Of a stretch of 64,000 bases of DNA, positions 12,837-43,987 are shown in pieces. The stretch spans positions 14,322,001 to 14,386,000 of the forward strand of contig CM097888.1 of NCBI GenBank assembly GCA_044892525.1, read 5' to 3'. Origin of the DNA: Schmidtea polychroa. Its lineage: Eukaryota. The position numbers and the translations under genes are program-made. Positions within the stretch are counted from its first letter, which is position 1. Each line of letters starts with the position of its first letter. The notes below the pieces were generated by a model. It was not told the DNA's origin. It searched no databases and saw only the letters and a list, made by a program, of their open reading frames with translations.

Positions 12837-12854
12837 TGGGGGCTCAGCCGGGAT
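12837..12854 (+). promoter_or_regulatory. Primer-binding site, tRNA-Pro-like
   Basis: TGGGGGCTCAGCCGGGAT matches 16/18 of the standard tRNA-Pro PBS TGGGGGCTCGTCCGGGAT. It begins 7 nt after the LTR end. Confidence 0.85.
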
Positions 12855-22900: not shown

Positions 22901-25900
22901 AATTTTTGGACAGATTTAGAAATCGGTCAAACAGCAGCGATAGCGATGATGACGACAACGGGAATGACAAATACCCATATCCAAGTAGAAACCCGAATGA
23001 AAAGCCAATAGAAACAGCGCCATATTGGGAGAAAGAAAAAACAAATACCTGGATAACCAACGGAAGTTATATACCACCAGATATCGTTGGACAACAAACA
23101 GCTTTGACCATGACACAAAATATGTATCCACAGTTACCAAGTCAACCAGGGATGAACTATATGCCGAACCGAAGAACGAAAAGCGTAGACCAAGCGGATG
23201 ACGTAAGAACGATAGCAGTGATGAGTTCACCAGGAGGCGCGGCAGTAACAGTCATGATCCAAATCAACGGGAAAGAGACAAGCGCAATGATAGATACCGG
23301 AGCAAATGTATCAGCAATAGCAATCAACCAAATACCCAGTAAATGTTGGAAAGACATCGAACAAACAACTATCCATATCATCGCATGCAGTAAAGAAACC
23401 GTAGACGTAGTAGGAAGATGGTGGACTACGTTAAGATATCAAGATAACGAAATTGAAACGTATCTAGCGGTGATACCCAAACTGAGTGAACCATGTATAA
23501 TCGGAACGGATTTAATGCCAGAATTGTTCAAGGAAGTAGTGATCGATTTAACAACAATGTGTCTAAAGGACAAAACGGGTAGAATATGCAAGATGAACGC
23601 AATAATTAGATGTCCGGAGAAAATAATTGTACCAGCAAAATCACAGATGATATGTCAAATAAAAGTGGATGCAGGAATGGAAGGAGAAGTCATTTTTGAG
23701 CCAAGCAAATCATTCGAAAAACGACGAGAATTACCATTAGCAAGAGAAATAATAACAATAAATGAAGACGGGGAAATACCAATCAACATCACAAATTTCG
23801 AGGAAGAAGATAAAATCATATATGAAAATGAAAGATTGGGTAGATTGACACCCATGATAGACATCGAATTACCAAAAATCACCAACGAAACAACGAAAGC
23901 TGACGAATTATGGATAATTGACAGCACCTTGCTAACGGAAAAAGAAAAGGAAAGACTTCAACAATTATTGATAGAATATAAAGATATATTCGCAATTTCG
24001 GATTTAGATTTGGGAGCATGCGATGTTACATTACACGCAATACCATTAATAGACGAAACTCCAATCGCACTACGTCCATACAAACTAGCAGAGAAGCAAA
24101 AAGAGATAGCCGAAGCAGAAGTACAAAAAATGCTAGATGCACAAGTGATCGAACCAAGTTGTTCGCCATGGCAATTTCCCGTAGTCATGGTGAAGAAAAA
24201 AGATGGTACTCAGAGATTCTGTATCGATTATCGGAAATTAAATGCAGTAACAAAAAGAGACACATACCCGTTACCAGACATCAATGAGATGTTACTTATG
24301 TTACAGGGGGCCGCATATTTTACATCTTTAGATCTGAAAAGCGGATATTGGCAGATCAAAGTCAAAGAGGAAGACAAAGAGAAAACAGCATTCACATTGG
24401 GCCGAGATCTATACCAATTCAGGAAAATGCCGTTCGGACTGACCAATGCCCCAGCATCATTCCAGAGATGTATGAATTTTGTCACACATGGGATCAAGCA
24501 GTGTATGGTATATATTGATGATTTATTAATATATTCAGCAACATTCGAACAACATTTGGAAGATATCAGAAACGTGTTCGTTCGATTACGACAATGGAAA
24601 TTGAAACTCAAACCATCCAAATGTGATTGGGCAAAAGAAAAGGTTACGTTCTTAGGACACATAGTGTCAGCAAAAGGCAAAGAACCAGATCCAAGAAACA
24701 TAGAAAAAATAAAAACATGTCCAGCACCAAAAACTGTCACCCAAGTTCAAGAATTTCTCGGATTATGCGGATATTATCGAAAATTCATCAAAAACTATGC
24801 AGGTATTGCGAAACCAATACAGGACTTAGTGAAAAAGGATATTTCATTTATTTGGGGTGCAGAACAACAAAAAGCATTTGAGACATTGCGAGATAAATTA
24901 ATTGAAGCTCCAATACTGGTACATCCTGATTTCAAGAAACCGTTCTTATTAGCAACAGATGCAAGTGGATATGCAGCCGGAGCAATATTAGGACAACTGG
25001 ATGAAGAGGGAAAAGAAAGAGTGATTGGATACTACAGTAGAACGTTTAAAAAGCATGAGAAAAACTATTCCGTAACCGAGAGAGAAGCATTAGCAATTAT
25101 ACAAGCGATTAAACATTTTCGATATTTGTTGTGGGGACACGAAATATGTATCACAACAGATCATCAACCACTAGTATGGCTTGGCCAACACAAAGAAGCT
25201 TCAAGTAGATTGATGCGATGGGCAATGCAGTTACAAGAATATTCACCGTTCATAAAATTCAAAGCGGGAAGAGCGAATGCCAATGCGGATTGTATGTCCA
25301 GATTTATCTTTCCAGATTTAGTAGATCACGAAACGCAACGAATATGTCTGATGGTAGCAGAAGATCTAGATTTTTGCCAATTACGGAAAGACCAACAAGA
25401 GGATACAGAGTTGAAGCAAATCATTGAATATGTGAAAACAGGGAAAGCAGAGGTATATGAGAAAGATCAAAAATTGAAGGAGCATATGGATAAACATCGA
25501 CATCGATATATTATCGAGAAAGACTGGTTGTTGATAATGGATGGAGAAAAAAGACTGATGTGCATCCCCGAGAATAGACGTAAAGAGCTGCTAACACAAT
25601 ACCATGACGGAAGACTCGGAGGACATATGTCATCTAAAAAGACGTTGGCACGAATGAAACAAAAGTATTTTTGGCCTACATTGACCGAGGATGTAACGGA
25701 ATGGGTGAAAAATTGCATAACTTGCGCAACCAGAAAAAACACGGGAACCAAATGGAAGGCACCATTAAAGCCAATGCCAGTACCAGCAGAACCAATGACC
25801 ATGATATCAATGGACGTGGTCGGTCCACTACCAGAATCAGATAGAGGAAATATATATATATTGGTAATCACAGACTATTTGACGAAATTCCCCGAAGCAT

Positions 25901-28900
25901 TCGCTATGGCAGATCAGAAAGCAAGAACAATCGCAAAAATACTAGTAGAGGAGATATGTTGTCGATATGGAACACCAAAACAGATATTAACTGACCAAGG
26001 AACAAATTTCATGAGCGAAATAATGAGCGAAGTCACCAACTACTTCAAGATCGCAAAATTAAGAACATCACCGTACCATCCACAAACTAATGGTATGACG
26101 GAAAGATTCAATGGAACACTGATTCAAATGTTATCAAATTATGTCGATCGTCATCAACGCGACTGGGACGAGTATATAAAATTATGTTTAATGGCTTACA
26201 GAATGTCGATTCACGCGTCCACAAAGATGAGTCCGTTCAAGTTGATGTACGGCAGAGAATGCAATATGCCAATGGATTTGGAGTATCAGCCACCAATATC
26301 ACAGTACATGGAAATAGACGATTATGTAACCAAGTTCAAGGAAAGAATGCAGGAAATCTGGGAAACTGCAGGATTGAATATAAAATTTTATCAGGAAAGT
26401 TACAAAGATCTACATGATAGAAAGAAAAACGTCAAACAGCATACGTTTCAAACAGGCGATTGGGTGATGATCGAAACACCAGAATTAATTCTAGGAACCA
26501 CCAAAAAATTACAACGAAACGGTAAAGGTCCGTATGAGATCCTATTCATCGGAGAAACCAATGTAAGAGTACGATTGGTAAACAACCCCTTCACAAGGCC
26601 AATATATGTAAATGTGGCACGATGTAAGCCAATACCGAAAACAGCCACCAGCCAGCCGGAAGGGCGAACATTAACAACAAGATCACAAACATATAGAATA
26701 AATATGTTACAGCAGATAAACGAACCAACAGGTAACCGATTGGGGTTACAACCATCAGAAGCCGAGAAAATCATAAAGGAAGTGAAAGCTAAAATGCCCG
26801 GATGGGCAGAAGACAGATTAGATTTTGAGATATTGGGAGGTCTGCTAACAATGATCGAAAATTATGCAAACCGAGAAAGGACACACCCATTACTCAGGGT
26901 AGTAAAAAGTCAATGGCCTATATTATTTACGATCACAGACCATTATGGAGATACACCGCTGCACAAACTTTTAAAGGTCGGGAATAATGAACAAATACTG
27001 GAAACGATCGAAGCATTTCGCGATTGTAACGTTTCAACAGATCAAGAAAATAACCAAGGTTACACTCCACTAATGATAGCAGCCAATCGGGATAAAGCTA
27101 AAGATATTATCATCGCATTACTTGAAACTGGGTCAAAGATAACCACACAAGACCACAACCAGAAAAATGCACTACATCATGCAATCGAAGGGAAAAGTAC
27201 GGAAGCCTTCATAATCTTAGTAGATCTATTATCATATGAGGATAATAGGGAGATAGGAAACATGTATGACGGGTTATTAACTGCAATCAAAGAGAAATTA
27301 ATAATAATTACTGGAATACTAATTGCGTGGAGGAACCCGATCAAAAACGATTATATGGTAGATATAAACGAAACATTTACCAAAGGAGAAAATACCTTGA
27401 TGAGGGAAGCGATGAGAGGACATCACCTATTCGAAATTCCAAATCAACTACTACAACGTGGCATAAAGTTTTCAAATCACAAAGACGAACAACTAATCAG
27501 AAAACGAATTACCAACTTCGAAAAAGCTATATCTCAATTTACCGATAAAGTACAAGTAAAATTTTGGGAAACCGTGAGTGTATTATATATGATGGAAACT
27601 ATGAACAACATTCGAGAAAACTACCTAAGTATTATTCAAGTGCTTACGGCGGAAGAACGCATTAACAGTTCAAACAAGAAAAAGATAAAAATAAAGAAAG
27701 TAAAAACAAGGGAGTCCGAGGAACAAGTCGATCAAATAATAACCGAGATAGCAACAACAAGTAAACCCAAGATAATAAACTCAGACCAGGAGATAATAAT
27801 ACGCAAAGCCAAAGAGGTGTTCTTTGAAGAAATGCAAGATCTATCCGATGAAGCGATACTAGCAAAAATAACAAAAACAGTACACACCTACGCAAGAGAC
27901 CAGACCACAAATCTAGACATAGAAAAAATAAAAACATTTATACCACTAGCATTCACCTTACCAACAAAAGACTCAAGAACACCATTACAACAAGCCATTT
28001 TAGCAGCAAAAGAAAACAGAGCAATAACCATCATAAGAATCCTGGGAGACTTCGGAGAAGAATCTAATGCAAAAAACGAACAAGGAGAAACAGCAATAAT
28101 GTATGCAGCCATAACAAATATACACCCGAAAACATTACATATACTACATCGATCGGGATCAAGACTGGACGAAATATCAAACGAAGGAAATTCTACCATG
28201 GATTGGGCAACCATACAACCAAACTTGGAAATGATTAGATTCATTTGTAAAAATGCTACAAGAACTGAGGTAGAAAATATCTGTAAAAACACGTCACAGT
28301 TCCAATGGAACACGATACGGATGAACTTAGAAGCCATGAAGTTATTGCTAACATGGAAAATACCGCAAAGCAATAAACATGCAATAAATATAAATGAGTT
28401 CTACGAAAACGGAGAAAATGCTATGGTTAAAAATACACTAACAAAAGGAGGAACTCCGAAAATCATAATGATCGTATTGAACAGAGAAGACCTCAAATTC
28501 ACGCAAAATCTAAACGAACAAAAGCGGATTGGAAAACATCGCCGTATACAATTGAGAGAACTGGTAAAAGAATGGAATAGAAAGAGACATGTAGCAACAG
28601 GCAGAAAAGAGTTTGAATTCGAGGCAAAATTAGCAAGGAATAGAGTGTTAACGGCATATCGCAGATTATTGAACGACATAAATGTCGAGGACGACATTTC
28701 AAACGATAGCGGGGGAGATAAAGACGATAAAGACGACGATAATAATGAACAAGGTCGAAGCGGGAATGGAGAGAAAGAGAAATCAGAGGAAAATAATCAA
28801 GGGAATAACGACTCAGGTATAAAAAAGGAGGAAAATAAACCGGGAAGCCGAACAAAGGAAGAGGAAAAGACGAATAATGGGAAACAGAGGGTATGCCCAC

Positions 28901-29904
28901 TTTTTACCAACAAGGAAATGGAAACAAATATGATGGTAATGATACTCATACTAACAATGATAGAAATGATAACAGCCCACGGTGGAATGAGAACGATAAA
29001 AGAAGCCAAGGAAACGGAAAACAAAGACAACAAGGAGAAGGAACTAAAGCAAGAAAAGAAGAAGCAAGTACGAGAGCAACAATGGGATTTAAAAGAAGAA
29101 TGGGATCTAAAAGAAAGATGCATACTAGGAAGATGTATGTCGAGAGCATATCGGAGACTAGTATTAATAAATGAAGATACAGAACCAATAACGGAAGTAA
29201 GAATACAAGAAGCATACCGGAATCGAGACGGGAAGAGAATAACTAAAGTCAAAGGGAAGGAGGTACACCTGAGAAAAGGAGGTGAGGTAGTGATAACGCA
29301 ACTCCAGCCAAGAAAAGAACACAAAGTCTGCATTTCAAGATTAGGACCGGGTGAAGACTGTCTACAATATGTAACACAGCAACAACCTCCAAAAGAATAC
29401 ACAGTATGCATCTGGAGAAACGATACAGCGAGAGAATGTCGACGATACCCTGGGAGAAGAGGGAGGAAAAGAAAAATCAATGACGAAAAAGATGAGCAAG
29501 GAAAACGCAAGAAAACCGATGAAAACCAGATGGAGAAAATACAAAGAATGGCAAAGGAAGGTATGAACGAGGAAATAGCAAGAATACGAGGAATGATGAA
29601 AGGAAATGGCAAAGACGGTAATCTAAAAAGCACAGAAGCAATATCAACAATAGCGAACAAGGAAAAAGCAGAAATTATAAGCGTAAAACAGATGATGTGG
29701 ATCAGCGGCATAATAATAACAGGGGCCTTTTTAATCATAACGGGGGGGACAATAAAAATAATCAAAGATAGACGGCATCGCGGAGAACTAGAAATGGCCA
29801 GAATAAGAAATTTTCAACATCGTGTAAGACGACCAAGTAATATCAAGCAGGAACAGTGGGTGGAGGCCTGGAATGCTCAGCGCCCTCCAAGCTCACGTAT
29901 ATAG
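16057..29904 (+). CDS. 4615-aa single-ORF polyprotein Gag-UBL-Bcl2-Env-PR-RT-RH-IN-ANK-TM
   Basis: Uninterrupted 13.8-kb ORF with recognisable motifs listed in the sub-features. Confidence 0.95.
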   Translation: MTNVVKTDEYKEKFRGEPFNGNANKLATFITNFEVYIDVCGWTSEAISKRMPLFLCDSALEVYLEAKERNTKLDNWESIKTFLRKTFGASKPINQALGELASRKQRANESITLYASELRRLAKKAMNGNLPEENLIGYFIEGLRREEVRASVGCQMCKTLEEAIDWATRCELHLPAQMNVMQEEGRIATATVKTENGENSNHEPKMNQFIPGAHQIFKPPQGRSNGNNSERNNPNNGNNFNNRRNTNDNKQCRTCGKPGHWDRDCYRNANCNRCGRRGHTENICQLRGCFNCGQLGHISRDCRERSQQQRPPQRNNNYAPNPQRQSNPSEGKQMNVMQEISQMKQMMQQMMRPRQEQVPQQTQNIRMMRSTENLNNYEVQQHAQEWQRLQAEEERIKRERIQQRQEQPLRINMMRMAREIKEQYCYNYGKNPRVVPMSEPEKPKETIPAAKKENSTTSLKGNQRIQKIFWKKIKDKIERENEKTKTEAEAENDENEKQINHLNHDMIRGLDSEELTILENKKLKKVPRMRNLRINMMRTTKKVLSTDDDEDYVSSLGGEMLQLNENIDQLREKIGADEDESESNVTSESEDENIEMKLRKEREEAIKQVKEILPVVVRNQEFIDIIPYRRFTQRIMKLERNEKDLIPNEEKAIIKKYMEKMKQAETTRYVIKIGTSKGLERIWIKNAVTDDLFDWIREHLGSSRKKEYLYQYQGEQIKPDMHLIDALIWPGETQILKLHKEKQPANIHEWAKDAKAEYDFNIKLKLEQIKQCTLRRNLDKLIKQIQEQVEDNWDLLITRRTADMHELMSRLRDTELLRMSDWRTINLIHKYGRLKETQPQKLEITIWLPNEEKRRIKMSNQSTVDDLVTKINQEITEKVRSESSDGMIDDVVMMYDKIILRAEDDTSLSEMGMWDNHQIIRILPMDEFRTRDVTYQKEIRDRMKTLYQKSVEIIEIHQQWLKEKELQGKIKKLSVRSCRRTPWERMWNAENKEWEIRKGIFVETDIGEIESESEEEEDEPPKYEEDEIKSTSDDESETDVTSESETETRHIHAMRKKEREYADIDGEEAKEAREREEKERYKQLGDILATGAKNQKRQVIALANIILKTSENIHNLREMAKAIEEYRQYNEWYPEQLEQIIRKWRNQEWAQDTQERYRIRVKYPDKSIEDIEVHPTTKIRELKKKLAYETPFHLQLFGKSLDDNADVGITPMRLGEINVLTMAETLGKPIKRKSKSSKPTKGSLSTPSPNKVASKSNETEEIEEIILEDSDEGAGERSPILVRWPTGAEIWTTSQPSTSYQQPHKLNIEEIIDNTTETETDEQFQRQKGPTKATPEGQTDKIIDEWNEWLRNNDSSLPRTDNERNPKYETTREAGTMMEKRAKGRPRKQGEKPEFKTREQLKQEQGQVRLEKLDKIVWDLKEAQPTIERGEKWIRELVKDMLIITNPQLRRLWQRKVASVDARQLWNTISGIIPKLIKEKTKTTKTDWEETRRVIEQLTLNANDDEHHLVVLTYLMYNLMGLAARKIPNKQFANHVEMTVTIIENTIEPHIIRAGGWKRLIQAPRKNEQERSMQIRLKKLLNELEWELPLKDPASRKASINSLMMTMMIWMLCTSGAAGFTIYDCDNSIIGERYSLRDIEECRQASPNKLDIVKKKVSYHVYQESDFIRTQARECVVSKKVLAYYCGQYSYSTLILPGLDKEIVPIQREDCKELFRTGAMRIRDGVTIHGQSGMIKTESIYVAGRVKSTDGSCNGGTYTIRGEVISGVVVIESYTVELKEYEAQFDANNYQMKTNPACRATENVCRTGISTIIYEANTQKCRLQLLKSALFNEVKGEIYENEDDDEENGNVRMRNGKPVPPSPKEKRLTTQKTPTALITDDPDIGMRFIREKETTKCDSIVYRTNYAGIYMSRQVIDRAVGKVATEDVKLYLYANNKMDFLFHRGQTTMQKVYYDLIQNDCSLNKEILKTKLAIAITHPDNTMPSLPLPDGHFGRMVGEVMYTYACTKTFARLPRKPTIPPGKCANELEISYKGRNRFVQPVTRIMNPIGFYPNTFNCSNAYGPLYEKPDGKWIMLPVKTEVQEPKKFGLIELATEQDFKPIDVSKAGMYSPEDLETARLNVLFPARRESILSNMVTITGGTNFQSGPNYELLLSPDHFQQATSNMMKAMWGRFLVFGQMMAGILGIILIIQIVRVILTQMLACFDIYKREKKVNWKLIVGFLPFLAKTMVLHGHSKDIHRIKRLIKILTKIKGTDEEVGRRFRKTMYDEATRTQLKKNKPKFLDRFRNRSNSSDSDDDDNGNDKYPYPSRNPNEKPIETAPYWEKEKTNTWITNGSYIPPDIVGQQTALTMTQNMYPQLPSQPGMNYMPNRRTKSVDQADDVRTIAVMSSPGGAAVTVMIQINGKETSAMIDTGANVSAIAINQIPSKCWKDIEQTTIHIIACSKETVDVVGRWWTTLRYQDNEIETYLAVIPKLSEPCIIGTDLMPELFKEVVIDLTTMCLKDKTGRICKMNAIIRCPEKIIVPAKSQMICQIKVDAGMEGEVIFEPSKSFEKRRELPLAREIITINEDGEIPINITNFEEEDKIIYENERLGRLTPMIDIELPKITNETTKADELWIIDSTLLTEKEKERLQQLLIEYKDIFAISDLDLGACDVTLHAIPLIDETPIALRPYKLAEKQKEIAEAEVQKMLDAQVIEPSCSPWQFPVVMVKKKDGTQRFCIDYRKLNAVTKRDTYPLPDINEMLLMLQGAAYFTSLDLKSGYWQIKVKEEDKEKTAFTLGRDLYQFRKMPFGLTNAPASFQRCMNFVTHGIKQCMVYIDDLLIYSATFEQHLEDIRNVFVRLRQWKLKLKPSKCDWAKEKVTFLGHIVSAKGKEPDPRNIEKIKTCPAPKTVTQVQEFLGLCGYYRKFIKNYAGIAKPIQDLVKKDISFIWGAEQQKAFETLRDKLIEAPILVHPDFKKPFLLATDASGYAAGAILGQLDEEGKERVIGYYSRTFKKHEKNYSVTEREALAIIQAIKHFRYLLWGHEICITTDHQPLVWLGQHKEASSRLMRWAMQLQEYSPFIKFKAGRANANADCMSRFIFPDLVDHETQRICLMVAEDLDFCQLRKDQQEDTELKQIIEYVKTGKAEVYEKDQKLKEHMDKHRHRYIIEKDWLLIMDGEKRLMCIPENRRKELLTQYHDGRLGGHMSSKKTLARMKQKYFWPTLTEDVTEWVKNCITCATRKNTGTKWKAPLKPMPVPAEPMTMISMDVVGPLPESDRGNIYILVITDYLTKFPEAFAMADQKARTIAKILVEEICCRYGTPKQILTDQGTNFMSEIMSEVTNYFKIAKLRTSPYHPQTNGMTERFNGTLIQMLSNYVDRHQRDWDEYIKLCLMAYRMSIHASTKMSPFKLMYGRECNMPMDLEYQPPISQYMEIDDYVTKFKERMQEIWETAGLNIKFYQESYKDLHDRKKNVKQHTFQTGDWVMIETPELILGTTKKLQRNGKGPYEILFIGETNVRVRLVNNPFTRPIYVNVARCKPIPKTATSQPEGRTLTTRSQTYRINMLQQINEPTGNRLGLQPSEAEKIIKEVKAKMPGWAEDRLDFEILGGLLTMIENYANRERTHPLLRVVKSQWPILFTITDHYGDTPLHKLLKVGNNEQILETIEAFRDCNVSTDQENNQGYTPLMIAANRDKAKDIIIALLETGSKITTQDHNQKNALHHAIEGKSTEAFIILVDLLSYEDNREIGNMYDGLLTAIKEKLIIITGILIAWRNPIKNDYMVDINETFTKGENTLMREAMRGHHLFEIPNQLLQRGIKFSNHKDEQLIRKRITNFEKAISQFTDKVQVKFWETVSVLYMMETMNNIRENYLSIIQVLTAEERINSSNKKKIKIKKVKTRESEEQVDQIITEIATTSKPKIINSDQEIIIRKAKEVFFEEMQDLSDEAILAKITKTVHTYARDQTTNLDIEKIKTFIPLAFTLPTKDSRTPLQQAILAAKENRAITIIRILGDFGEESNAKNEQGETAIMYAAITNIHPKTLHILHRSGSRLDEISNEGNSTMDWATIQPNLEMIRFICKNATRTEVENICKNTSQFQWNTIRMNLEAMKLLLTWKIPQSNKHAININEFYENGENAMVKNTLTKGGTPKIIMIVLNREDLKFTQNLNEQKRIGKHRRIQLRELVKEWNRKRHVATGRKEFEFEAKLARNRVLTAYRRLLNDINVEDDISNDSGGDKDDKDDDNNEQGRSGNGEKEKSEENNQGNNDSGIKKEENKPGSRTKEEEKTNNGKQRVCPLFTNKEMETNMMVMILILTMIEMITAHGGMRTIKEAKETENKDNKEKELKQEKKKQVREQQWDLKEEWDLKERCILGRCMSRAYRRLVLINEDTEPITEVRIQEAYRNRDGKRITKVKGKEVHLRKGGEVVITQLQPRKEHKVCISRLGPGEDCLQYVTQQQPPKEYTVCIWRNDTARECRRYPGRRGRKRKINDEKDEQGKRKKTDENQMEKIQRMAKEGMNEEIARIRGMMKGNGKDGNLKSTEAISTIANKEKAEIISVKQMMWISGIIITGAFLIITGGTIKIIKDRRHRGELEMARIRNFQHRVRRPSNIKQEQWVEAWNAQRPPSSRI
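18058..19725 (+). CDS. Three ubiquitin/SUMO-like folds inside the polyprotein (~18058-18280, ~18574-18835, ~19519-19725)
   Basis: For example RIRVKYPDKSIEDIEVHPTTKIRELKKKL...LQLFGKSLDD parallels ubiquitin [29 protein letters not shown]...RLIFAGKQLED. Confidence 0.6.
20280..20740 (+). CDS. Bcl-2-like helical domain
   Basis: All-helical segment ending in BH2-like TIEPHIIRAGGWKRL (GGW at 20719-20727). BH1 is degenerate. Confidence 0.55.
20851..22671 (+). CDS. env: Envelope-like fusion glycoprotein (chuvirus/Monjiviricetes-type, class III-like): signal helix, Cys-rich ectodomain, TM
   Basis: Signal-like LMMTMMIWMLCTSGAAG is followed by FTIYDC...YSLRDIEEC...REC-V-KKVLAYYCGQYS and about 14 Cys. 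TM FLVFGQMMAGILGIILIIQIVRVIL lies at 22576-22650. Confidence 0.75.
23227..23560 (+). CDS. pro: Retropepsin aspartic protease
   Basis: AMIDTGANVS (DTG at 23293-23301) and the IIGTDLM motif. Confidence 0.93.
23960..25310 (+). CDS. pol: Reverse transcriptase and RNase H
   Basis: RFCIDYRKLN, LDLKSGYWQI, MPFGLTNAPASFQR, YIDD (24511-24522), LATDASG, EREALAI and TTDHQPL. Confidence 0.97.
25560..26640 (+). CDS. int: Integrase (HHCC, DDE core, GPY/F)
   Basis: HDGRLGGH...CITC, SMDVVGP, TDQGTNF, NGMTERFN and GKGPYEI. Confidence 0.96.
26935..28260 (+). CDS. Ankyrin-repeat region fused after integrase (two clusters)
   Basis: GDTPLHKLL, GYTPLMIAA and QKNALHHAI, then SRTPLQQAI, GETAIMYAA and GNSTMDWAT. 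Confidence 0.85.
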
Positions 29905-30072
29905 AAAGGATTATGACTGTATATAGATTGTAAAAAGTAAGTAGACAATATTTATTTATATAACAGTATGATATATTTTTATACAAGCGCGGTATCAATA
30001 GTATATAATGATGGGGATAATTAACATAAAAATAAAATTAGATAAGGATTGAAAAGTATATATAACTTAAGA

Positions 30073-30432
30073 ATGGAACGAATAGGCGAGGAAGTAAATC
30101 ACAGTACGACAACCGAGGAGATGTGGAAACAACAATGTGCAATGTTAACTCAAGTGATTTCGAATTTACAGGAACAAGGACTCGCTGTACAAAGAAGCTT
30201 AGTCGAAAGTTTAAATAAAGGCTTCAGTTATGTAAGAATAATCGAAGACCAACGAATAAAAATAGAACAAATGCAGCGAGAGATAGACCGAATATCACGA
30301 TACAGCCAGGTGCAAGAAGAGGAGTTAATAAGAATCGCGGAAGAGATGGAGCGAGAGGAGATAGAAGACTGGTCAGAATGGTTAACCAGCAGGGAAGAGG
30401 GCGGACAAGAGGCCGACTCTTCCAGCCAATAA
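30073..30432 (+). CDS. Accessory coiled-coil protein (119 aa)
   Basis: First ATG is at 30073 (the ORF track starts at an upstream TTG). Heptad-rich with an acidic tail and the same codon style as the element. Confidence 0.6.
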   Translation: MERIGEEVNHSTTTEEMWKQQCAMLTQVISNLQEQGLAVQRSLVESLNKGFSYVRIIEDQRIKIEQMQREIDRISRYSQVQEEELIRIAEEMEREEIEDWSEWLTSREEGGQEADSSSQ

Positions 30433-30521
30433 ATATAACCTAAAATAGCAATGTAAATAACTGTAAATAAAAATACGAAACTGTACCAGTAACGAATATA
30501 TGTATATATATAATTATAGAA

Positions 30522-31394
30522 ATGGATAAGCGACAACGAGAAGAATTCAAAGAAATTGTCGAACAAGTCAGAAAGTCCACCACAATTCGAATACACAACC
30601 ATGTAACGTGTGGAATATGCAAGAACTTATTAAGAGAACCTCACCAAACCCGATGTGGATGCAGAATGTGCAGAGAATGTGTAGAGGAGGTAATAAAGAA
30701 GGGACCACAATGGTGCCCAGTATGCAAAGAAACAATGATAACAAGTTTGGGAGATACAAACGAAGATAAAGCAGCTGTAAAAGATATGATGAATGCAAAC
30801 CTAGGATGCAAAAACACCCCATGTAATTGGCGAGGAGTGATATGGGAAGTGAGGCAACATATGGAGCAATGTGAATATAAAATCAGTCAATGCAAACGTT
30901 GCCAAGAAGAGATTAAAGTCAATGAAGAAGCAGAACATCAAAGTCGATGCGAAGAAAGACTGGAGAAATGTGAGTATTGCGGAGAAACCGACACCTGGAA
31001 AAAACTAATCAGTCAACATCACAACATACAAGAGGAGAAAGTGTGCGCAGAATTCAGAGGAGAATGCCCCAACAAATGCGATAAACCCGGAGTAATAAAA
31101 CTCGCTCAACATCTGAAAGAATGTGAAAGGAAAAAGATAAGGTGTGTGTTAGGAAAATGGGGATGTCAGAAACAATTACACCGAGGGGAATTACCCCAAC
31201 ATCTAGCAGAAAACGTATCAACACACGCGGAAATATGGTCAACGGTATTACAAGAAAACGAAAGGAAAACCGAAAACTTAGAAAGAGAAATAGTCTCGCT
31301 AAAAGCGTTGGTAAAAGAACTATTGGAAGAAAAGGAAGCATTCGAAGAGGCGAGAACAAGCACAAAGATACAAACAGATCTAGTAGAAACTTAG
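30522..31394 (+). CDS. TRAF homolog N-terminal part (RING, TRAF zinc fingers, coiled coil)
   Basis: CGICKNLLREPHQTRCGCRMCREC...CPVC, CKNTPCNWRG...HMEQC and CVLGKWGC...HL are TRAF-type motifs. Ends at TAG 31392-31394. Confidence 0.88.
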   Translation: MDKRQREEFKEIVEQVRKSTTIRIHNHVTCGICKNLLREPHQTRCGCRMCRECVEEVIKKGPQWCPVCKETMITSLGDTNEDKAAVKDMMNANLGCKNTPCNWRGVIWEVRQHMEQCEYKISQCKRCQEEIKVNEEAEHQSRCEERLEKCEYCGETDTWKKLISQHHNIQEEKVCAEFRGECPNKCDKPGVIKLAQHLKECERKKIRCVLGKWGCQKQLHRGELPQHLAENVSTHAEIWSTVLQENERKTENLEREIVSLKALVKELLEEKEAFEEARTSTKIQTDLVET

Positions 31395-31400
31395 AACATT

Positions 31401-31910
31401 ATGGTGAAAGAACTACATCAAAAAGTAAGCGAATTAAACCTCAACGAATTAATACCAACGGCTCCATACATATGGAAGATAACGGGAGTAAAAGAGAAGA
31501 TGCAGAGAGCGAGAAATGGAAAGGATACAACATTACTAAGTCCAGCATTCTACTCATGGAAAAACGGGTATAAAATGAAAATGAAAGCATACCCCAATGG
31601 GGATGGAAGTGCATATGGAACGCATTTCTCAGTATTCTTCTTGATATGCAAAGGGCTATACGACGAGTTAATAGAATGGCCATTCAAAGCAAAAATAGAC
31701 CTCGCAATGATGAACTATCAAAGTATACATGAACAGAGTTTCCATACAGCGGGAAGCCTCGTATGTTACCAAAGACCCTTGGAAGAAGAAGGACCAGCAA
31801 CTGGAGCACCGAATTTCATCCTACAGCGGAAAGTAGAAGACATGACGAGAAACGACACTATATACATAAAAATAGCGGTGAGGCGAGACGGGAAGAGTAG
31901 GACTGAGTAG
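31401..31910 (+). CDS. TRAF-C/MATH domain protein, in frame with the TRAF N-part
   Basis: YIWKITG, SPAFYS...GYKM...YPNGDG...THFSVFF...G.YD..IEWPF, YQRP and DTIYIKIAV. Confidence 0.92.
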   Translation: MVKELHQKVSELNLNELIPTAPYIWKITGVKEKMQRARNGKDTTLLSPAFYSWKNGYKMKMKAYPNGDGSAYGTHFSVFFLICKGLYDELIEWPFKAKIDLAMMNYQSIHEQSFHTAGSLVCYQRPLEEEGPATGAPNFILQRKVEDMTRNDTIYIKIAVRRDGKSRTE

Positions 31911-32125
31911 AGAGACGAATAATTTTGTATATATTAAATTGTAAATATCGGTGAATATACCCAGTAAAATATTATATAGTAGTGTAGAAAACCCCAAATA
32001 TGTTAAGAATAAACTTAAACGGAAAAATTCTAAAAACAACCCACCGATAACGAATTATAAACAATGAATAAATAACGAATATAAAAAGGCGACGTCAAGT
32101 TAATAATATCATTGTTCAGATCAAG

Positions 32126-33163
32126 ATGACACAAGAAGGAACTGAAGCCCCAAACCACGAAACCAAAGTCAATAAAATCCATAAGGGAAAATGGGTCAAA
32201 GTAATGTTACAATTGACGAACCAGACCCGTAACCACCTCGAAGAGGCCAGGGAATACGAGAATAACAAATATCAGTGGTTAGTAAACAATTTGAGAGCCG
32301 AAGCAGAAACATGCAAAAGAGCCTCTAAGTGGGCATCATTGGAAAACACTCGCCAAGAAGCGCACAGCCACTATTTAAAAAAGTTAGTGCAGGAAGCACG
32401 GAAACGATTGACGGACGAAAACACAAAACGAGAAGCAGAAAAACAAAAGGAAGGAAGGAAAATGAACCACCTATTGGCAGAAGCCCGAAACTGGAAGCGA
32501 CAGAACAAAGAGATGAAAAAAGAAATGAAAGAATTGCCTATGAGATTAGAATACGAAAGCGAACAAGGCAAATGGGAGGAAAATCTGGTCATAAGAGAAG
32601 AACTGAAACGGCTCAGAAAGATTGCGGCCCGAAGTCAAACATGGCAGACCAAAGCCATGGAATTTGAAAGACATCTAGCCATGAAAATCTCCATAAGGGA
32701 GCACGAGAATGCCGCAATGGAAGAACTGATACTTCAACAGTCAGGACGACTCGTGGAACTGGTAAATAAGGTCGCAGAACTAGAACGAGATGTCAACGGA
32801 TACCAAGGAGCTCTGGAGCAGAGAAATATGGTACTGGCGGGGAAAAACAAAAAGTTAGAAAACGAAAGGAAAATGTATAACGAAAATCTCAAAAATCTGG
32901 AGATAGAAATCAAGAAATGGGAAAACGGCGAAAAAGCGGAAGAGCTAGAAAAACAGATAGAGGTAAGAGACGATGAAACCAGGTATCTAACATACCTGTT
33001 GGACGAGGAACTTAACGTGTCAAGAGCACTAAGAGACGAAGTGCAAGAACTTAGAGCGCAGATTCCCCGGTACTACATCCCATTTAATCCCATCGCATTC
33101 CAATTACAAACGTCAGTAGAAAGCGATGAAGGATATGTAGGCCAGGAAGAGACCTTTGTATAA
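32126..33163 (+). CDS. Accessory long coiled-coil protein (345 aa)
   Basis: ATG after an AT-rich spacer, with E/K/R/L heptads throughout. Confidence 0.75.
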   Translation: MTQEGTEAPNHETKVNKIHKGKWVKVMLQLTNQTRNHLEEAREYENNKYQWLVNNLRAEAETCKRASKWASLENTRQEAHSHYLKKLVQEARKRLTDENTKREAEKQKEGRKMNHLLAEARNWKRQNKEMKKEMKELPMRLEYESEQGKWEENLVIREELKRLRKIAARSQTWQTKAMEFERHLAMKISIREHENAAMEELILQQSGRLVELVNKVAELERDVNGYQGALEQRNMVLAGKNKKLENERKMYNENLKNLEIEIKKWENGEKAEELEKQIEVRDDETRYLTYLLDEELNVSRALRDEVQELRAQIPRYYIPFNPIAFQLQTSVESDEGYVGQEETFV

Positions 33164-33332
33164 AGATGAAGGGAAAGATAAAAAATATAAAAATCGGGAC
33201 CTGTATCCCAACCAAAAAATTAATAGTACAGTAAAAGTATGAAAGGGACTGTAACCCTGATTATAAAATAACATACAAATGTATAAGTATAAGCCGCACT
33301 GTAGCGCACTATTAATTGTAAATATTGTAGAA

Positions 33333-34022
33333 ATGAAAATAGAAGAAATATCCACCATGACCGAGCTAGAGGAGGGAGAAATTGAAGTTGATGAAGTGGA
33401 GAGGAAGAAAACTATCAAGGAAGAATTACAAGAAGAGAGACAGGAAAACGAAAGATTAGTAGAAAAGTGGAGGGATAATCGAAAAATGATTAAAGTATTG
33501 AAAAGAGAATACACCTTGCTAGAAGAAGTAAAGAAAGAAGTGGAGGAAGAAAATGAATGGCTTCACGAGCAAGGAAAGCGAGGGAGAAATTGGGAAAAGA
33601 TCGCGGAAGAATTATGGCAGGAGAGGGCCAGTCGAAAGGCCGACGAAGTGATTAGTGACTATTGGAAAACCGAGGCACGGAAACACCAAGAAAGCCTGAA
33701 AGAGTTACAACTCCAACTACACCAAAAACAGAAAGAATGTGAGATAATGAGACGAATGAACAACAAATACCAGGAAATAGACAACGAAGAAGACGGGGAA
33801 AGGGAAAATGATTTTCTACAGATAATGAACCATAAAAACCTCGAAAGAGCAACACAAGAAATAAAAGCACTAAAAGAAAAAATAATAACCCTAGAGCAAC
33901 AGTTAGACGAAAGAGACAAACAGTTAAAAGTACTACCCGAATTGAGAAAACGAGTAATAAAAGCAGAAACGAGAGTGATGAGAACATCCGAGAAAACCCG
34001 TAAAAAGAAAACCCGGCAATAA
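33333..34022 (+). CDS. Accessory coiled-coil protein (ATG 33333 preferred; alternative ATG 33279)
   Basis: E/K-rich heptads with a basic C-terminus. ATG 33333 follows TTGTAG. Confidence 0.7.
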   Translation: MKIEEISTMTELEEGEIEVDEVERKKTIKEELQEERQENERLVEKWRDNRKMIKVLKREYTLLEEVKKEVEEENEWLHEQGKRGRNWEKIAEELWQERASRKADEVISDYWKTEARKHQESLKELQLQLHQKQKECEIMRRMNNKYQEIDNEEDGERENDFLQIMNHKNLERATQEIKALKEKIITLEQQLDERDKQLKVLPELRKRVIKAETRVMRTSEKTRKKKTRQ

Positions 34023-34078
34023 TTAAAGATGAATGATCAATGTAAATAATTGTAAATAAAAAATTTTCGTATAGTAGT

Positions 34079-34714
34079 ATGTGGTTCGGAGCAACCCTGG
34101 TGACAATAATGATGATAGCGATAAACGGAATACCCATGTGGCAGCCAATCCCAACACTCTGGGAGAATCCCGAGAAACAGCAAAACCCGTTAACCAAACT
34201 GAAAAGCGAAAGAAAGCTCTCCAACAACATCCCGAAACAATGCTGGAACAAAGCCGTCTGGCAAAAACTTCAAATGCAACTCCACCTACAAACCCAAAAA
34301 ATCGAACAGCTCGAAATTCTCTTACAAGAACAAACCACCCAACAATCCTTGAAGGAAATCATCGTGAAGAAGGAAGTAAAAGAAAGTCAAGTCCTACTCT
34401 ATGCTACCATCAGTGAAACCCTTATCATCTGCGCACTAGTCATCTGGAAAGCGCATGATATTCATCGAACATGGAGAAGAAACCAGTCACTATCCGAGAA
34501 ACACGAAAGAAAGAACCCACGACCGAAAAATAAACATAAACGAGCAGTACATTTTCAACAACCAAGCCCACCCGACCAAATGCAACAAAATCTATCCCCT
34601 GACCAAATGCCTGTTACAATCCAGCTCCCCACGATAGCAACTTCAACCAGCCATCCGACCCAGAATTCAACCAACCAAGACAGTAATAACATTCCGAACC
34701 TCGAGATCATGTGA
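34079..34714 (+). CDS. Putative type-I membrane protein (signal, coiled coil, TM, Pro/Gln/Thr tail), 211 aa
   Basis: Hydrophobic N-terminus MWFGATLVTIMMIAING, TM VLLYATISETLIICALVIW, and a tail containing PTQNS. Confidence 0.65.
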   Translation: MWFGATLVTIMMIAINGIPMWQPIPTLWENPEKQQNPLTKLKSERKLSNNIPKQCWNKAVWQKLQMQLHLQTQKIEQLEILLQEQTTQQSLKEIIVKKEVKESQVLLYATISETLIICALVIWKAHDIHRTWRRNQSLSEKHERKNPRPKNKHKRAVHFQQPSPPDQMQQNLSPDQMPVTIQLPTIATSTSHPTQNSTNQDSNNIPNLEIM

Positions 34715-34945
34715 CATCGACCATTCATAAACTTTGTGTGTATAAATCCGGTCACCTAAAGTGGCCACTGCTTGCTTATTTTTGTCCTTTTATCTGTTTA
34801 ATTAAAGTATTATTTAGTTATTTTAATTTTATGTTTGTGTGGATTTTGATTGTGAGATTAGTTGTTATACTGAAAGAAGGTACGATTCGAATGTACGATA
34901 TTATGTGAATTGCGGGACGCAATTTTAACGGGCCCCGGAGTGATT

Positions 34946-37900
34946 TGTTGGGCCAAGCTCCGAAGGTGTTGAAAAAACGAACCGAGGAAGGGATAGAGTA
35001 AAATAAAATAAAAACATATAAAAAATACGAGAAACATAGGAGGAAACAAATTAAATATCCAACAAAGAAATTAGAAAAACTAAATAAAATAACAAAACCT
35101 CTAAAGGAAAAATAAGACAAGAGGGAAGGCACCTAATAAACGACAGTAAAAGAAAAAAAAAATAAAATAGCAGAAAATCTAAGAAAAATGAAGAAAAACA
35201 AAATAAAAAATCATCCATAAGGCTAATTAAAACAAAAAATGAAGTTACAATAAAATAACAACAAAACCACAGGAAAAACAGATAAAATAATAAAAAATAG
35301 GAAAATAAATAAAATAATAATAAAAATAGGAAAAAGTCATTAAAATACACCTGATTACATTAAAAAACATAAAAATTATAATAAACAATAATATTACATG
35401 CAAGTCGCGTCCTGATTGGACGAAAAGTAATATATAAAGAGCGACAAAAATCTGTAGAGTATCATTCTAACCCGAAACTCTACAGGTAAAATTTTATCCT
35501 TTATATAATCATTCTAACCCGAAACTCTACAGGAAAACTAGGAGCAACTCACAAGCACAGATTATTGAACCATATTCATACATCGGATAACATATACATT
35601 TACCGGAGATCGAATTCAGTTAAGCCGAACGAGTCTATCTAAAGAAAACTTATATTACTTTGATCTAACACCTTCGGAGATTTTTGGTAAATTATGTTTT
35701 TAGATTTTAGTATGATGATTTAAATATTTATTATGAATTTAACAAGACGTTTATAATCCAATAAATTTCATATTTTAAACGAAGGTGTTGCTTTCTCTCT
35801 ATGATGCTGGCGACGACGTCCTCTGGAGTCCGGGTATGATGCAGTTGGATTTTTCGAACGTCCTACGGAGAGGACATTTACGAATATGAACTCAGGAAAT
35901 TGAAGTGATAGAACCAGCCCAAGATCCATATGAATTTAGAAACTAAAGTGATTACTTAATGAATAAGAGATTTATATTAACTAGAGTCATCATGCCCGGA
36001 ATCCAAATGTCGTGGTCGCCAGGTGAACATTTATTTAATTGATTTCCTCATAATTCCATTATTTCTATATTGTTTTATTGAATAATTAAATTGTATTATT
36101 GCACATTTATTGAGAATGGAGTTGCGATGAGACGGGTCGAGTCGTCCTTCACACCGGTCCAAGAGCAGTGGGCAGAGATGCGTACTGCCTTGGGTGGGTT
36201 GTGAGGAGCGAGGAAACCATGTGAGATTTAACAAATCAAGTAATTGATTCTTTCATCGAGTGTAATCCACCCATCTTAGTCGTCGAAAACCATCCAATGC
36301 AGAAACTTCTGAGTGACATAGTTTGAATCAACGATACCTTGGGAACTCCAGGAGATATACCATTAAAACTATCATCAGCATTGTGTCCAATCACGTAATT
36401 AAATAATCTTTGATTTTGAGCCATATTCGTCTTGCATTGAGAAAAGTGACTGTTAGAATGTCTGCCGGAAGGAGTTATTAATTTCGAGTTTTTACGAGAG
36501 ATTCTCTGTACTAAGCCCATTTCGTATCTTACAATCTGAAGGTGCTTTGGAAGCTACACCGCCGGGAGGTTAGCGAATAGATCCATCGTCTTGCTTATCG
36601 TCGACTCCGAGGAGACTTAATGATCGACCAACGTCTAGCCGCTGTCATTGATAATAGCTCGATTTAGACATGAACGTAAACATCTCTGGATAGTAGATTA
36701 AGACACTGACTGTGAGTCCGAAAGAAACGGTCGCCAGCAACATCGAGTGAGCGTAGTAGACCGCCGGGAAATCGATTGATAAGATATCTGAAGCCTCAAT
36801 TCTGAGCGAACGAGTTGACAGTCTTTATCTCAAAACCAATTAGTAGAGAAAAATCTAAATATAAAATCAATCTTATCTAGTAGATTCGCAATTAACCCAC
36901 ACAATTAGATTCATGTGATTTCTGTGACACTCTCTCAGACTCCAACCTATCTAGAAAATCAGCCAGCGATATCATGTCTAGTGTGCAGATAGTGGATAGA
37001 TTTACATCATAATTACATAATGGTAGCAGGGGAGATGGCTAGGCTACATGTACAATCCGATAGCGAGATTACGTCACATTGAATGGTAGAATTGCTGCCC
37101 AGTCCAAGAACACACATCGATGATAAATTGTACAATGCATGCATATGAACCGACCTGACGACATCTGTTAGCATACATAAAAAGAAAAACTAACACACCA
37201 CTACTCACAAACAAGCGTCGTTATGACGACATTTATGTCGCAAGATTTAAGGTGATCAAATAGCAAATTATGATAAGACTTAAATTGAATTTTGCGGTTC
37301 TTTTGTGAAGCCGATCACGACGTTTAAAACCCAATAGTCACCAGTCATACCGAACTAGGTTTTTGCGACACAACTCGCGCGTAATTTCAGGAATATAGTA
37401 GCGCGGGGAGTGGGGATGCTATTGCTAGGGAAGGATAATTATAATAAATTCGACTGTGATAAATTAATAAAAGCACATTAAATAAAAATGGCCAATTTCA
37501 GAAAGATAAACATAAAGTCAAAGTTATGATAAATGTATTATTTCGAGTAATTCCGTTTTCTTTTTTCTCTATCAGTATGGATGCTTGCGGACAAATGAGT
37601 GTAAATGTTGACCAGTGATAAGGGTAAGTGGGTCATTGTCGAGTAGGATGATTGGAAATAGGGTAAAAATTGTAGTCAAAATTTGGAAACGACACGCCAA
37701 CGATTTTTTTTAACTCTACAATTAACAAAACGTCTTGATCTTTAGATGCCTGCTTCAACCGCTTCGAACAAGGATCTTCGTCCATGCTTCTCCTGCGCAG
37801 ATAAAAACGCAGTCATAGCCCAACTCCACTTATATATCGGGGCACTGAAAAAGAGAATTGATCTCTATGAAGGCACGTGGTTCTCCCCGCCACAAATGAA

Positions 37901-39041
37901 GGAGGAGCGCAGTAAAATTCTTCGGTTGGAACATTGCCGGGACAGCCTCCTAGAGGAGAGTCGCTGTCAAAGATTGACGATCAAGGCGCAATCGGAAGCC
38001 CTCCACAAGGTCTATACGGAGGCAGAATTGGCCAAACGGGTACGAGAATTTCCCGTCTTGGAGGCCAGCAATGTTTTTCCAACTCATCACCAAAGTATTT
38101 CCACCGCTACAACCAGTTGTTTGGGGCACGGCTCCTATCTGCCGCCTGTTCCAGCACCGGCCTTATACAGTCATCAGCCGCCGGTAGGTGGTCCATCCGA
38201 CCCTATCTTGGCTCCAGTTTTAGTGACATCCGTTACAGCACCCGATGCGGACAGTCGCCAACCACAGCGTAAAAGAAAACGGCCGACCCGAGCCGCCAAA
38301 AACCAAAGACGTCGAGAGGCAATCGCGGCTCTCGAGGCGTCGTTATCTGTGGCCAAGTCTTCTCTGGAAAAGTTATCGTCGATACCCTCTATCCCCACAA
38401 AGGAGATATTCCGGGTGATCTCACCCGATGGGGTCCAGCTCGTGCGAGACCGTCGGTTACCGGTCGACATCGACGAGATGATCGCCGAAGGGGAAGTTTT
38501 CCCATAATTGGACGTGTCGATTTACCCATCTCTCATCCGACGCGATCAAGCTCAACAATCTTTATGAATGACTTAGATGATGCGTGCTTGTACTCTCCTA
38601 CGTGTTGTGATCTACAATTTGTGTTCATATGTATCCTCAATTTCATTAATATAATCATAGTATTCGTTATGTTGTCCCGTAAAAGTTATAGAGTAATGAG
38701 TGATGTCTTGATGAATGAATTGGAATGACCATTGGAGAATGTGGGTCGTCCCCTTGGACCAGGGTCGTACCCAGAATGCATGACGAGTATGGGTAAGACC
38801 TTCTTAGGCACCGGGGAACCTGAACTGAGAGTGGGTCCGTAGTAGTCCTAAGGCAGGGGCTCACCTGCAGATCAACTCCGACCCGTGTGAGCAGCACCAA
38901 CGTGGGTAGATCATCACGGGCTCACATGAGGGAATATTTGTAAATCATGCGGGTTATGTGGGGGAAGGGCCCCGAGCTAAAGGAACATGAGGCCAGCTGC
39001 ACATCGAATGTCCGTTTGACTCCTCCCATATACGCCCAACA
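34946..39041 (+). repeat. 3' LTR (4096 bp)
   Basis: Same termini as the 5' LTR. Differences noticed are one extra A in an A-run, T>C at 38465 and TA>AT at 39003-39004. Confidence 0.96.
37746..38507 (+). CDS. LTR-encoded 253-aa protein, 3' LTR copy
   Basis: Identical translation to 11534-12295. Confidence 0.7.
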   Translation: MPASTASNKDLRPCFSCADKNAVIAQLHLYIGALKKRIDLYEGTWFSPPQMKEERSKILRLEHCRDSLLEESRCQRLTIKAQSEALHKVYTEAELAKRVREFPVLEASNVFPTHHQSISTATTSCLGHGSYLPPVPAPALYSHQPPVGGPSDPILAPVLVTSVTAPDADSRQPQRKRKRPTRAAKNQRRREAIAALEASLSVAKSSLEKLSSIPSIPTKEIFRVISPDGVQLVRDRRLPVDIDEMIAEGEVFP

Positions 39042-40981
39042 TGATTTAAAAAGTTAATAAAAGTTTCAACTAATACAAATGGAAATGGTGGAATACGAAA
39101 AAAATCTCTTCGTCCTCATCGTCGCATTGACGTTATCTATAGAGTTTAAAAATCCAAATTTTTCTTAAGTTTGACATCCTTTTTCCTGCTTCTTCTTTTT
39201 TTCTTCTTTCTCCTTTCTTTTCTGGCCTCCCGACTTATGCTGATAACTCATTGCAACTTTTAGAAATAAAAAGTTTTAGTTAAAATTAAATAATATAGTA
39301 AATAAAATTCATAATAGATAAAAATTTCAAATTAATAAAACTTACCAATAAATGTGATAATCTAATTCCCAAAACGTAAATTATAAAAAGCTTTAGAGTA
39401 AACGTTTGAATTCATGCAAACATTTTCTAGATTTCTGTTTCCAGAATTTTCAAAAAAACCTAGTTGGTAGGTCAAGAAAAATACAAGGGTTCGCATCATT
39501 AAAAAGTGTAAAAATTATAAAGCCATTAACTTTGTTTTATTGAAAACCGTTTTCAGAAATGGCAACTTGTAAATATCTGGTAAGATATTTTAGTAAAACT
39601 TAAAAGATGAAAATAAACATGAGTTTAAAAACTTGTAAAAAGTAGTTATCTGAAATTGAAATTTTAAAGCCAAATATAATTATATCGCGGGCCCCAATGA
39701 TTTGCATCACCTGCATCGCCCTCTTATCAGTGATGATTATTTCTTTCAATGTCCTTTACAATAAAATCTTTATTCAAATTAGTTTTATGTCTAAACTAAG
39801 AAGTTGATACTCACGCATTATCCCAAGAAAGAATTATGTTCTTCGGGTAGGAGAGGACGAACAAATATATTAATTTAAAAACGTACTGTTTATACAAAGC
39901 TAAGTTTATTAATTAAATATTTACATACATATATATCAGCCAGGCTAAATTGTTACTGGAAAATAAGATTTTGTTGAATCAGCAGCATTTAAAAATTAGT
40001 CGTCCACGTACCTGACACGTGTTCGGCCCCTCCCAGGACCGGCGCTGATCAAATCTAAGAACTCCCAACAATATATATTTTTATTGATACCCCAATTTAT
40101 AATCAAAATATGACACTGATCTTCAAACTTTATAGATAACTTGTTAATAATTACAGTTTTATAACGTACATCTCAAAACGACACAACTGATATGAAATGC
40201 AATGGTAAAACAATTCTGCCTGAAGAAATGATTTCCTTTTTTTCGTTATCACTTAACCAACTAATCAAATAAAGTTTTTAAAATTTTTTTGTAAATTATT
40301 TGTGTCCCAAATTTCTCTTTCACGTTCATTTTTATACTTCCCAGCCATCAATCTAATAATAATTTTCCTTATGCCACAAATGCTTCAGGAAACAATTAGG
40401 ATTTACAAATTTATTTTTTTGAACTCATTTTTAAAACCAATTTGTTAAGTACGTTTTTAATTAATTAATTTCGACCTTTTTCAACTGATCAAAAAGATTC
40501 TCGAATTAAAAGTCCTATGTATTTTTGTTACAGTAAAGTAGTACTTTATCTCAAGACAATATTTTAGAATCAAATAACTACTTTGTATGAAATAATTTTT
40601 TATTAATAACTTTGTATTGTGCATTGCCTAATCCATCGATGACATAAAACAAACTCAAGGAATTATTTACTATGTTAAGTCGTTAAATTTCAAAAATGAA
40701 ATTTCAAGCTTTTATTTTCAGACTCCAATATATATAGTTAAAAATTTAGTAATAAAATTCTTTTAATAGTTTTCATTATGTATTTTTGATGAAATATGTT
40801 TTATTTCATAAAAAACTGTAACAAAATTAATATAAGCATCAAAAAGTTGAAAATTTAATATTTTGTTTATTTTTCCATTTATATTTTATCAACATTGGAT
40901 ATTTAAATAATTAAATGTCTGATTTTGAAGCATCTAATTTAATTTTTTTCTGTAAATAAAGCTATTGATGAATTTTTAGGA

Positions 40982-43970: not shown

Positions 43971-43987
43971 TTTTTATTTATTTATAG

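Follow-up and report, generated by a model that had tools for sequence, protein, structure and literature searches.

Planarian genomes contain giant Ty3/gypsy elements, Burro and GYPSM1, which according to passages of PMC6431247 exceed 30 kb and combine long terminal repeats (LTRs) with a giant polyprotein. Here we describe a Burro-like element of Schmidtea polychroa, located in a 64,000-nt stretch of contig CM097888.1 (positions 14,322,001–14,386,000 of the forward strand, assembly GCA_044892525.1; hereafter the window, whose own coordinates are used throughout), and we analyze a short motif that recurs in the five spacers preceding its downstream accessory genes. Burro elements and the Pumilio element that this motif matches are both known; what may be new is their arrangement in a retroelement cassette. 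The same passages of PMC6431247 mention neither spacer motifs nor the mode in which accessory open reading frames (ORFs) are expressed. Across the titles and abstract openings surveyed, which do not include the texts of Lee et al. 2026 or Grohme 2018, either of which may map Burro transcripts, no Pumilio sites or spliced-leader (SL)-type acceptors were reported to punctuate a retroelement accessory cassette.

The element spans positions 8735–39041 (30,307 nt) and is thus, like the described giants, longer than 30 kb with multi-kb LTRs (here ~4.1 kb). It is considered young because the two LTRs are identical at 4098 of 4102 aligned bases. As in Burro and GYPSM1, env lies in frame between gag and pol within a single polyprotein, three CCHC knuckles, ankyrins and a MATH/TRAF module are present, and the leader contains tandem repeats; the polyprotein has 4615 aa, compared with 4873 in Burro1 and 5140 in the element of D. 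tigrina. Unlike in Burro, the TRAF module is a downstream accessory gene. Burro1 also encodes B-IAP, which joins a BIR domain to a RING; no BIR domain was detected by Pfam among the ten translations of the element included in the 14 scanned, which yielded a RING only, and for this reason we call the element Burro-like and not Burro1. The cassette and its frame are as follows.

8735–12829, plus strand: 5′ LTR, TGTTGGG...CCCAACA
16057–29904, plus strand: polyprotein, 4615 aa, with gag, three CCHC knuckles, fusion glycoprotein, protease, reverse transcriptase, RNase H, integrase and ankyrin parts
29905–30072, plus strand: spacer S1, TGTATATA at 29918 (+14 from the stop codon), near-match TGTAAAAA at 29929, AATAAA at +127; only AAG adjoins the next ATG, the closest YAG lying 31 nt upstream
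30073–30432, plus strand: accessory ORF A1, 119 aa, no family above the cut-off
30433–30521, plus strand: spacer S2, TGTAAATA at 30452 and 30462 (the second continuing into AATAAA), TGTATATA at 30501, acceptor-like TAG at 30517–30519
30522–31910, plus strand: TRAF-like accessory gene with RING, zinc fingers, coiled coil and MATH
31911–32125, plus strand: spacer S3, TGTATATA at 31926, TGTAAATA at 31940, acceptor-like CAG at 32117–32119
32126–33163, plus strand: accessory ORF A3, 345 aa, charged and probably coiled-coil, without a Pfam family
33164–33332, plus strand: spacer S4, TGTAAATA at 33317 (+154; 16 nt before the ATG) besides five more TGTA, acceptor-like TAG at 33328–33330
33333–34022, plus strand: accessory ORF A4, 229 aa from the ATG at 33333; an upstream in-frame ATG at 33279
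34023–34078, plus strand: spacer S5, 56 nt, TGTAAATA at 34041 and 34051 (the second continuing into AATAAA), acceptor-like TAG at 34072–34074 / 34075–34077
34079–34714, plus strand: accessory ORF A5, 211 aa
34946–39041, plus strand: 3′ LTR

TGTAWATA sites in the accessory-gene spacers

An earlier note on this stretch had listed nine TGTAHATA motifs between 29905 and 34078, and all nine are found where it placed them: TGTATATA at 29918, 30501 and 31926, and TGTAAATA at 30452, 30462, 33317, 31940, 34041 and 34051, all on the plus strand, which is the sense strand of the element. The H position is occupied by A in six sites and by T in three, never by C, so the motif reduces to TGTAWATA. A TGTAHATA pattern search over the whole window returned 25 matches, nine of which are these sites in the five spacers.

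The spacers total about 697–698 nt and are 70–82% AT, close to the ~700 nt given before. The same note had estimated less than one copy by chance and proposed a formal enrichment test. Dinucleotide shuffling of each spacer gives a mean of 0.64 sites with a maximum of 6, and none of 20,000 shuffles reaches nine, which confirms the enrichment. The host flanks, with 15 TGTAHATA in 33.7 kb on both strands, predict 0.15 sites for the spacers, and the maximum in any 700-nt host window is two. Since the motif had been picked by eye, a post hoc control took 3,000 shuffles and recorded the best 8-mer with one N in each. Without a restriction on the word, nine occurrences were reached in 137 of them; among words containing G or C, in none (maximum 7). 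At least one site in each of the five spacers was obtained in one of 20,000 shuffles. The result is robust to omissions: seven sites in four spacers remain when S5 is dropped (0/20,000), and eight, against 0.58 expected, remain without the site at 33317 (0/20,000), which falls inside coding sequence (33279–34022) if the first ATG of A4 is taken. Chance or AT-richness as the cause of the sites is ruled out by the shuffles together with the host-flank rates.

The continuation of TGTA into HATA is seen in 9 of 17 cases in the spacers, compared with 0/48 in the polyprotein, 0/21 in the LTR plus leader, and 5/113 and 0/39 in the host flanks; hence all eight positions are constrained. Two pairs at exactly 10-nt spacing had also been noted. 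The spacing holds, but the pairs, in S2 and S5, are copies of one 25-mer (24/25 identical) and therefore do not count as independent instances. A third pair has a spacing of 14 nt (31926/31940), and a pair formed with a near-match one of 11 nt (29918/29929).

The placement of the sites goes with the upstream stop codon and not with the next ATG. Seven of the nine begin within 30 nt past a stop codon (p=0.0045). The first site follows the stop at +14 in S1, +20 in S2, +16 in S3 and +19 in S5, and this tightness in four of five spacers is uncommon under random placement (p=0.0036, or 0.0075 when either end of the spacer counts). Distances to the next ATG, on the other hand, are not clustered (spread 139 nt, p=0.99). 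No site starts within the first 13 nt past a stop, which suits a ribosome shadow of about 15 nt.

Acceptor-like signals and a proposed Pumilio-type reading

Read as RNA, the motif is UGUAHAUA, the binding element of the PUF family, as had been proposed: all nine sites match exactly the definition given in passages of PMC4995099. The proposal of shared regulation of the cassette through PUF proteins fares well as to sequence, sense orientation, position after stops and lack of structure, binding being predicted from these; its Forkhead half is a poor match (see below). Six RNA folds gave z-scores of −0.30 to 1.25, so that the spacers are unstructured, and the stop-linked sites may lie in single-stranded 3′ untranslated region (UTR). 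A conserved RNA structure was rejected as a candidate, all six stretches folding no better than shuffles; an Rfam search of 8000–40000 and a tRNA scan each gave 0 hits.

The exact UGUAHAUA, paired in what would be a 3′ UTR here, is shared with the Nanos response elements (NREs) of hunchback (hb) (passages of PMC4995099), and in three of the sites AAU precedes the motif, the context found in hb NRE2 (AAAUUGUACAUA). Unlike the hb NREs, the sites here are 10–14 nt apart and lie in a retroelement. The dinucleotide AY precedes TGTA in 10 of 17 cases in the spacers, compared with 5/48, 4/21 and 14/113 elsewhere. Positions −1 and −2 are A or T in seven of the nine sites, on an AT-rich background, and −1 is C in the other two. 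A C at −1 blocks Nanos in a fly assay (PMC4995099, in part), and because two of nine sites have it, co-binding of Nanos is not generally supported.

The second regular component of the cassette, absent from the earlier note, is an acceptor-like signal before most ORFs. Four more features are needed here.

9219–9255, plus strand: candidate LTR core promoter, TATATAAA at 9219 and initiator-like TCATTC at 9250
9274–9320, plus strand: candidate 47-nt intron, GTAAAA...TTCTAAC...CTACAG
11531–12295, plus strand: LTR ORF, 253 aa (11534–12295), TAG abutting the ATG, 54-nt AG-free zone
13318–13802, plus strand: RING ORF, 159 aa (13323–13802), TTTTTTTAG 2 nt upstream of the ATG

A YAG lies 0–6 nt before the ATG in six of eight element ORFs, compared with 22/115, 36/197 and 67/519 control ATGs. 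When, in addition, at least 18 nt free of AG are required, the six ORFs are retained, whereas other ATGs drop to 7/115, 11/367, 24/404, 21/422 and 3/113 (3–6% of control ATGs), and none of 20,000 shuffles reaches six. The S2 acceptor, AATTATAG, matches the terminal bases of a host intron (41522–41564, 43 nt). Furthermore, and independently, the diverged ORF of a sister LTR in the window (55354–55791, minus strand), 46% identical to the LTR ORF over 146 aa, keeps TTTTCATAG / TTATTTTCATAG 3 nt before its own ATG, in the same layout.

In flatworms, SL operon candidates have been delimited by same-strand gaps of ≤300 bp (passages of PMC12582326), and the spacers of 56–215 nt are well within this limit. 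Short same-strand gaps and a YAG just before the ORF are shared with the flatworm SL operons described in parts of PMC12582326 and PMC8629364, and four of the five accessory ORFs combine such a gap with a 3′ acceptor-like signal. The literature searched yielded no LTR element whose gene cassette is resolved by the SL.

In complex retroviruses and the adenovirus late unit, expression uses alternative acceptors: a single 5′ promoter and a single donor serve all ORFs, each of which has its own acceptor. The element would share this plan, at donor–acceptor distances of 21–25 kb; a shared motif after the stop is not a feature that we associate with those viruses. The core promoter at 9219–9255 is called from the general consensus, and its function is putative. 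The GTAAAA at 9274, ~22 nt past the predicted start site, is a possible major splice donor.

Enrichment, stop-linked position, acceptor-like signals and lack of structure are features of the sequence itself. We propose, with confidence about evenly divided, that the sites are Pumilio-type 3′ UTR elements and that spliced accessory mRNAs are under host PUF control, with acceptor use, binding and repression all predicted from these features. Most spacers can be read as one punctuation unit: a stop codon, one or two UGUAWAUA 14–30 nt further on, a stretch free of AG, an acceptor-like YAG and an ATG. The sites would then fall in the proximal 3′ UTR of the polyprotein and accessory cistrons, and splicing onto the acceptors would provide each downstream ORF with its own mRNA, in which it comes first. 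The route may be SL trans-splicing or cis-splicing from the LTR donor, since the latter could outcompete the SL, as an upstream cis donor can do under a donor-first rule (PMC4558846, in part). Binding of host Pumilio would repress or destabilize the mRNAs, such that output would track cell state. The arrangement suggests that each accessory gene may have its own message under host control. In planarians, Pumilio RNA interference (RNAi) leads to neoblast loss or differentiation defects (passages of PMC3552358), and in the window a host LUC7-like gene has TGTAAATA 7 nt past its putative stop.

Several observations weigh against the Pumilio proposal. The anchoring statistic was picked post hoc, and the acceptor thresholds (0–6 nt and 18 nt) were likewise fixed after the fact. 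The strand bias is weak, as shuffles already lean to the sense strand (0.64 vs 0.25). As a single 25-mer accounts for the pairs of both S2 and S5, there are at most three independent stop-linked cases. S4 deviates, its sole perfect site lying at +154; the sites at 30501 and 33317 (two of nine) fall in the acceptor zone, 21 and 16 nt upstream of an ATG; and perfect sites are missing downstream of A5, the LTR ORF and the RING ORF, the sequence 3′ of A5 holding just the near-matches TGTGTATA and TGTATAAA at 34737 and 34739. A1 and the polyprotein, without a close YAG, are two misses of the acceptor pattern. The LUC7-like gene also has the motif 31 nt before its ATG, and the motif was seen at one of three host ORF ends checked. 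Finally, the specificity of planarian Pumilio is taken to be that of the fly protein.

If the proposal is true, a retroelement would exploit host Pumilio, perhaps together with SL trans-splicing, to adjust the dose of its cargo to the state of the cell. A second-hand account in part of PMC13465017 has Burro1 protecting planarian stem cells via a captured anti-apoptotic gene. The repeated unit of stop, Pumilio element, acceptor and ATG predicts splice junctions, poly(A) positions and the response to pumilio RNAi.

Competing explanations

The main rival, a serious one that is also absent from the earlier note, though in our view unlikely, is that the sites are signals of 3′-end formation: paired UGUA, bound by CFIm or a planarian factor beside AAUAAA, would punctuate an operon by cleaving its cistrons before trans-splicing. 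TGTA as such is enriched in the spacers (17 vs 7.4), although this becomes borderline when the perfect sites are masked (7 vs 3.75, p=0.055). At least one hexamer of the planarian poly(A)-signal (PAS) type is present in each of the five spacers, and the second site of S2, like that of S5, continues into AATAAA (TGTAAATAAA); AATAAA itself, however, is not enriched (5 vs 5.4) and its distance varies from +33 to +127. Cleavage in S5 would adjoin the acceptor, as in SL1-type operons (passages of PMC12582326), and twin UGUA strengthens mammalian poly(A) sites (PMC10476966, in part). In contrast, planarian 3P-Seq data, as presented in parts of PMC5068929, reveal no UGUA ahead of the PAS, and a homolog of CFIm59/68 was not found there either. 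Full-length genomic RNA would also have to read through all such 3′-end sites. A scheme of comparably low probability would make the captured genes of this envelope-bearing element a true operon, in which an LTR transcript is cut, through internal polyadenylation and host SL trans-splicing, into mRNAs of one gene each, all with paired Pumilio sites. In that case its TRAF and coiled-coil genes would be plugged into the RNA control of host stem cells, which would explain the free addition of genes by Burro elements.

A less probable explanation places the sites in DNA, as Forkhead sites or TATA surrogates of an internal promoter for each downstream gene. The Forkhead consensus is RYAAAYA and that of the initiator TCAKTY; CAGTA resembles the cap-site motif of arthropods or baculoviruses. 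Six of the nine sites contain GTAAATA, a match to RYAAAYA, and TGTATATA includes TATATA. The remaining three are not RYAAAYA, and neither this consensus (sense 8 vs 4.3, p=0.068; antisense 2 vs 0.6, p=0.13) nor TATAWA (p=0.066) is significantly enriched. Position is a further difficulty: it follows the upstream stop and has no tie to the ATG, and S5 is just 56 nt long, its two motif copies lying 38 and 28 nt upstream of the ATG. Acceptor-like signals would moreover be superfluous for a promoter. On these grounds the Forkhead alternative of the earlier note is poorly supported. CAGTA occurs four times in four spacers (raw p=0.0015 among 303 5-mers), which is not significant after correction; CAGTA and YAGTA (raw p 0.0015–0.017 among hundreds of words) are retained as a lead only. 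The lack of TCAKTY in the spacers (0 vs 0.14 expected) and of TGTAHATA in the LTR (0.33 expected) is uninformative at such expectations.

It is also rather improbable, slightly more so than internal promoters, that the sites are relics without present function, i.e., a short A/T-rich piece copied between spacers or carried along with captured host 3′ UTRs. The 24/25 nt shared by S2 and S5 (E about 1e-6) would fit such copying, and in a host gene of the window the motif does follow closely on the stop. On both sides of the 25-mer, however, the sequences are unrelated, the accessory proteins show no paralogy, S1, S3 and S4 have the motif with other spacings and flanks, and the seven sites left without S5 still exceed all shuffles. 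Like the next explanation, it accounts for only part of the sites. Least probable of all is a role in the use of the downstream acceptor, be it as enhancers of splicing or trans-splicing or as branch-point-like elements. Four sites (30501, 33317, 34041, 34051) lie 16–38 nt before an acceptor-bearing ATG, and the LUC7-like gene has TGTAAATAAA 31 nt before TTTTTAG-GA-ATG, but the remaining five are 60–200 nt from the ATG, and the LTR and RING ORFs, with the clearest acceptors, lack the motif.

Three further candidates were rejected: a coronavirus-like leader/body match, as there is no motif copy in the LTR; a Musashi element (6 vs 4.7, p=0.32); and tandem paralogy of the accessory genes, no protein pair falling below E 0.2.

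Further features of the element and the window

The TRAF-like gene has MATH hits (PF21355 / PF22486) in 31401–31907. An in-frame TAG at 31392–31394 separates its coiled-coil and MATH parts; all 11 relatives (427–549 aa, 24–29% identity) have TRAF zinc fingers and MATH in a single chain, and the TAG is probably a break specific to this copy, or subject to readthrough.

The env of the element is closest to that of Smed_errantivirus_5 (47/90 residues in a count by eye, with supplementary rows of PMC13524379 as the reference), a likeness from which we place the element in a sister family and not in Smed_errantivirus_5 itself. The best single-stretch relatives of pol are 50–52% identical; among the five scanned, env precedes pol in two and ankyrins are present in one. 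Ubiquitin-like stretches, a BCL2-like GGW motif at about residue 1555 (by regular expression and by eye) and a hydrophobic C-terminal segment were observed in the polyprotein.

Around the predicted start site, 9249–9320 contains a 26-nt duplication with a 47-nt period, one period of which is a GT-AG mini-intron with CTAAC. Downstream of this site, each LTR has the 253-aa ORF without a Pfam family (11534–12295 and 37746–38507). The primer-binding site candidate is:

12837–12854, plus strand: primer-binding-site-like TGGGGGCTCAGCCGGGAT, presumably a tRNA-Pro-like match

The leader has four copies of a 72–74-nt tandem repeat at 14360–14673 and an ATG-less frame of 98 codons (15395–15691) directly after TTTTTTCATTGTAG. 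It also contains GTAAG donors at ~15727 and ~15768 and a TTTTCAG acceptor at 15793, and the polyprotein frame is open for 109 codons 5′ of its own ATG; therefore gag may start in a spliced exon. An AUG at the 3′ end of the SL was considered as the start for the ATG-less acceptors (~15393, ~15793) and rejected, hand reading giving short frames and not the long ones.

No matching target-site duplication was seen at the element ends (ATTAT at 8730–8734 on the left, TGATT at 39042–39046 on the right). TGATT is also found 3′ of the 5′ LTR (12830–12834) and 5′ of the 3′ LTR (34941–34945), where there is no clear polypurine tract. Either non-standard LTR ends or recombination of this copy may account for this.

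The flanks are 71–74% AT, a composition that, along with the architecture and the env likeness, points to a planarian host. The LUC7-like gene extends from 40982 to 45848, with AATAAA at 45890, and is a possible host operon or SL target. A remnant LTR of a sister family (54490–56000, minus strand) shares a 28-nt patch and ends in CCAACA, and a DDE transposase remnant (PF03184), broken by stops, lies at 52605–53899.

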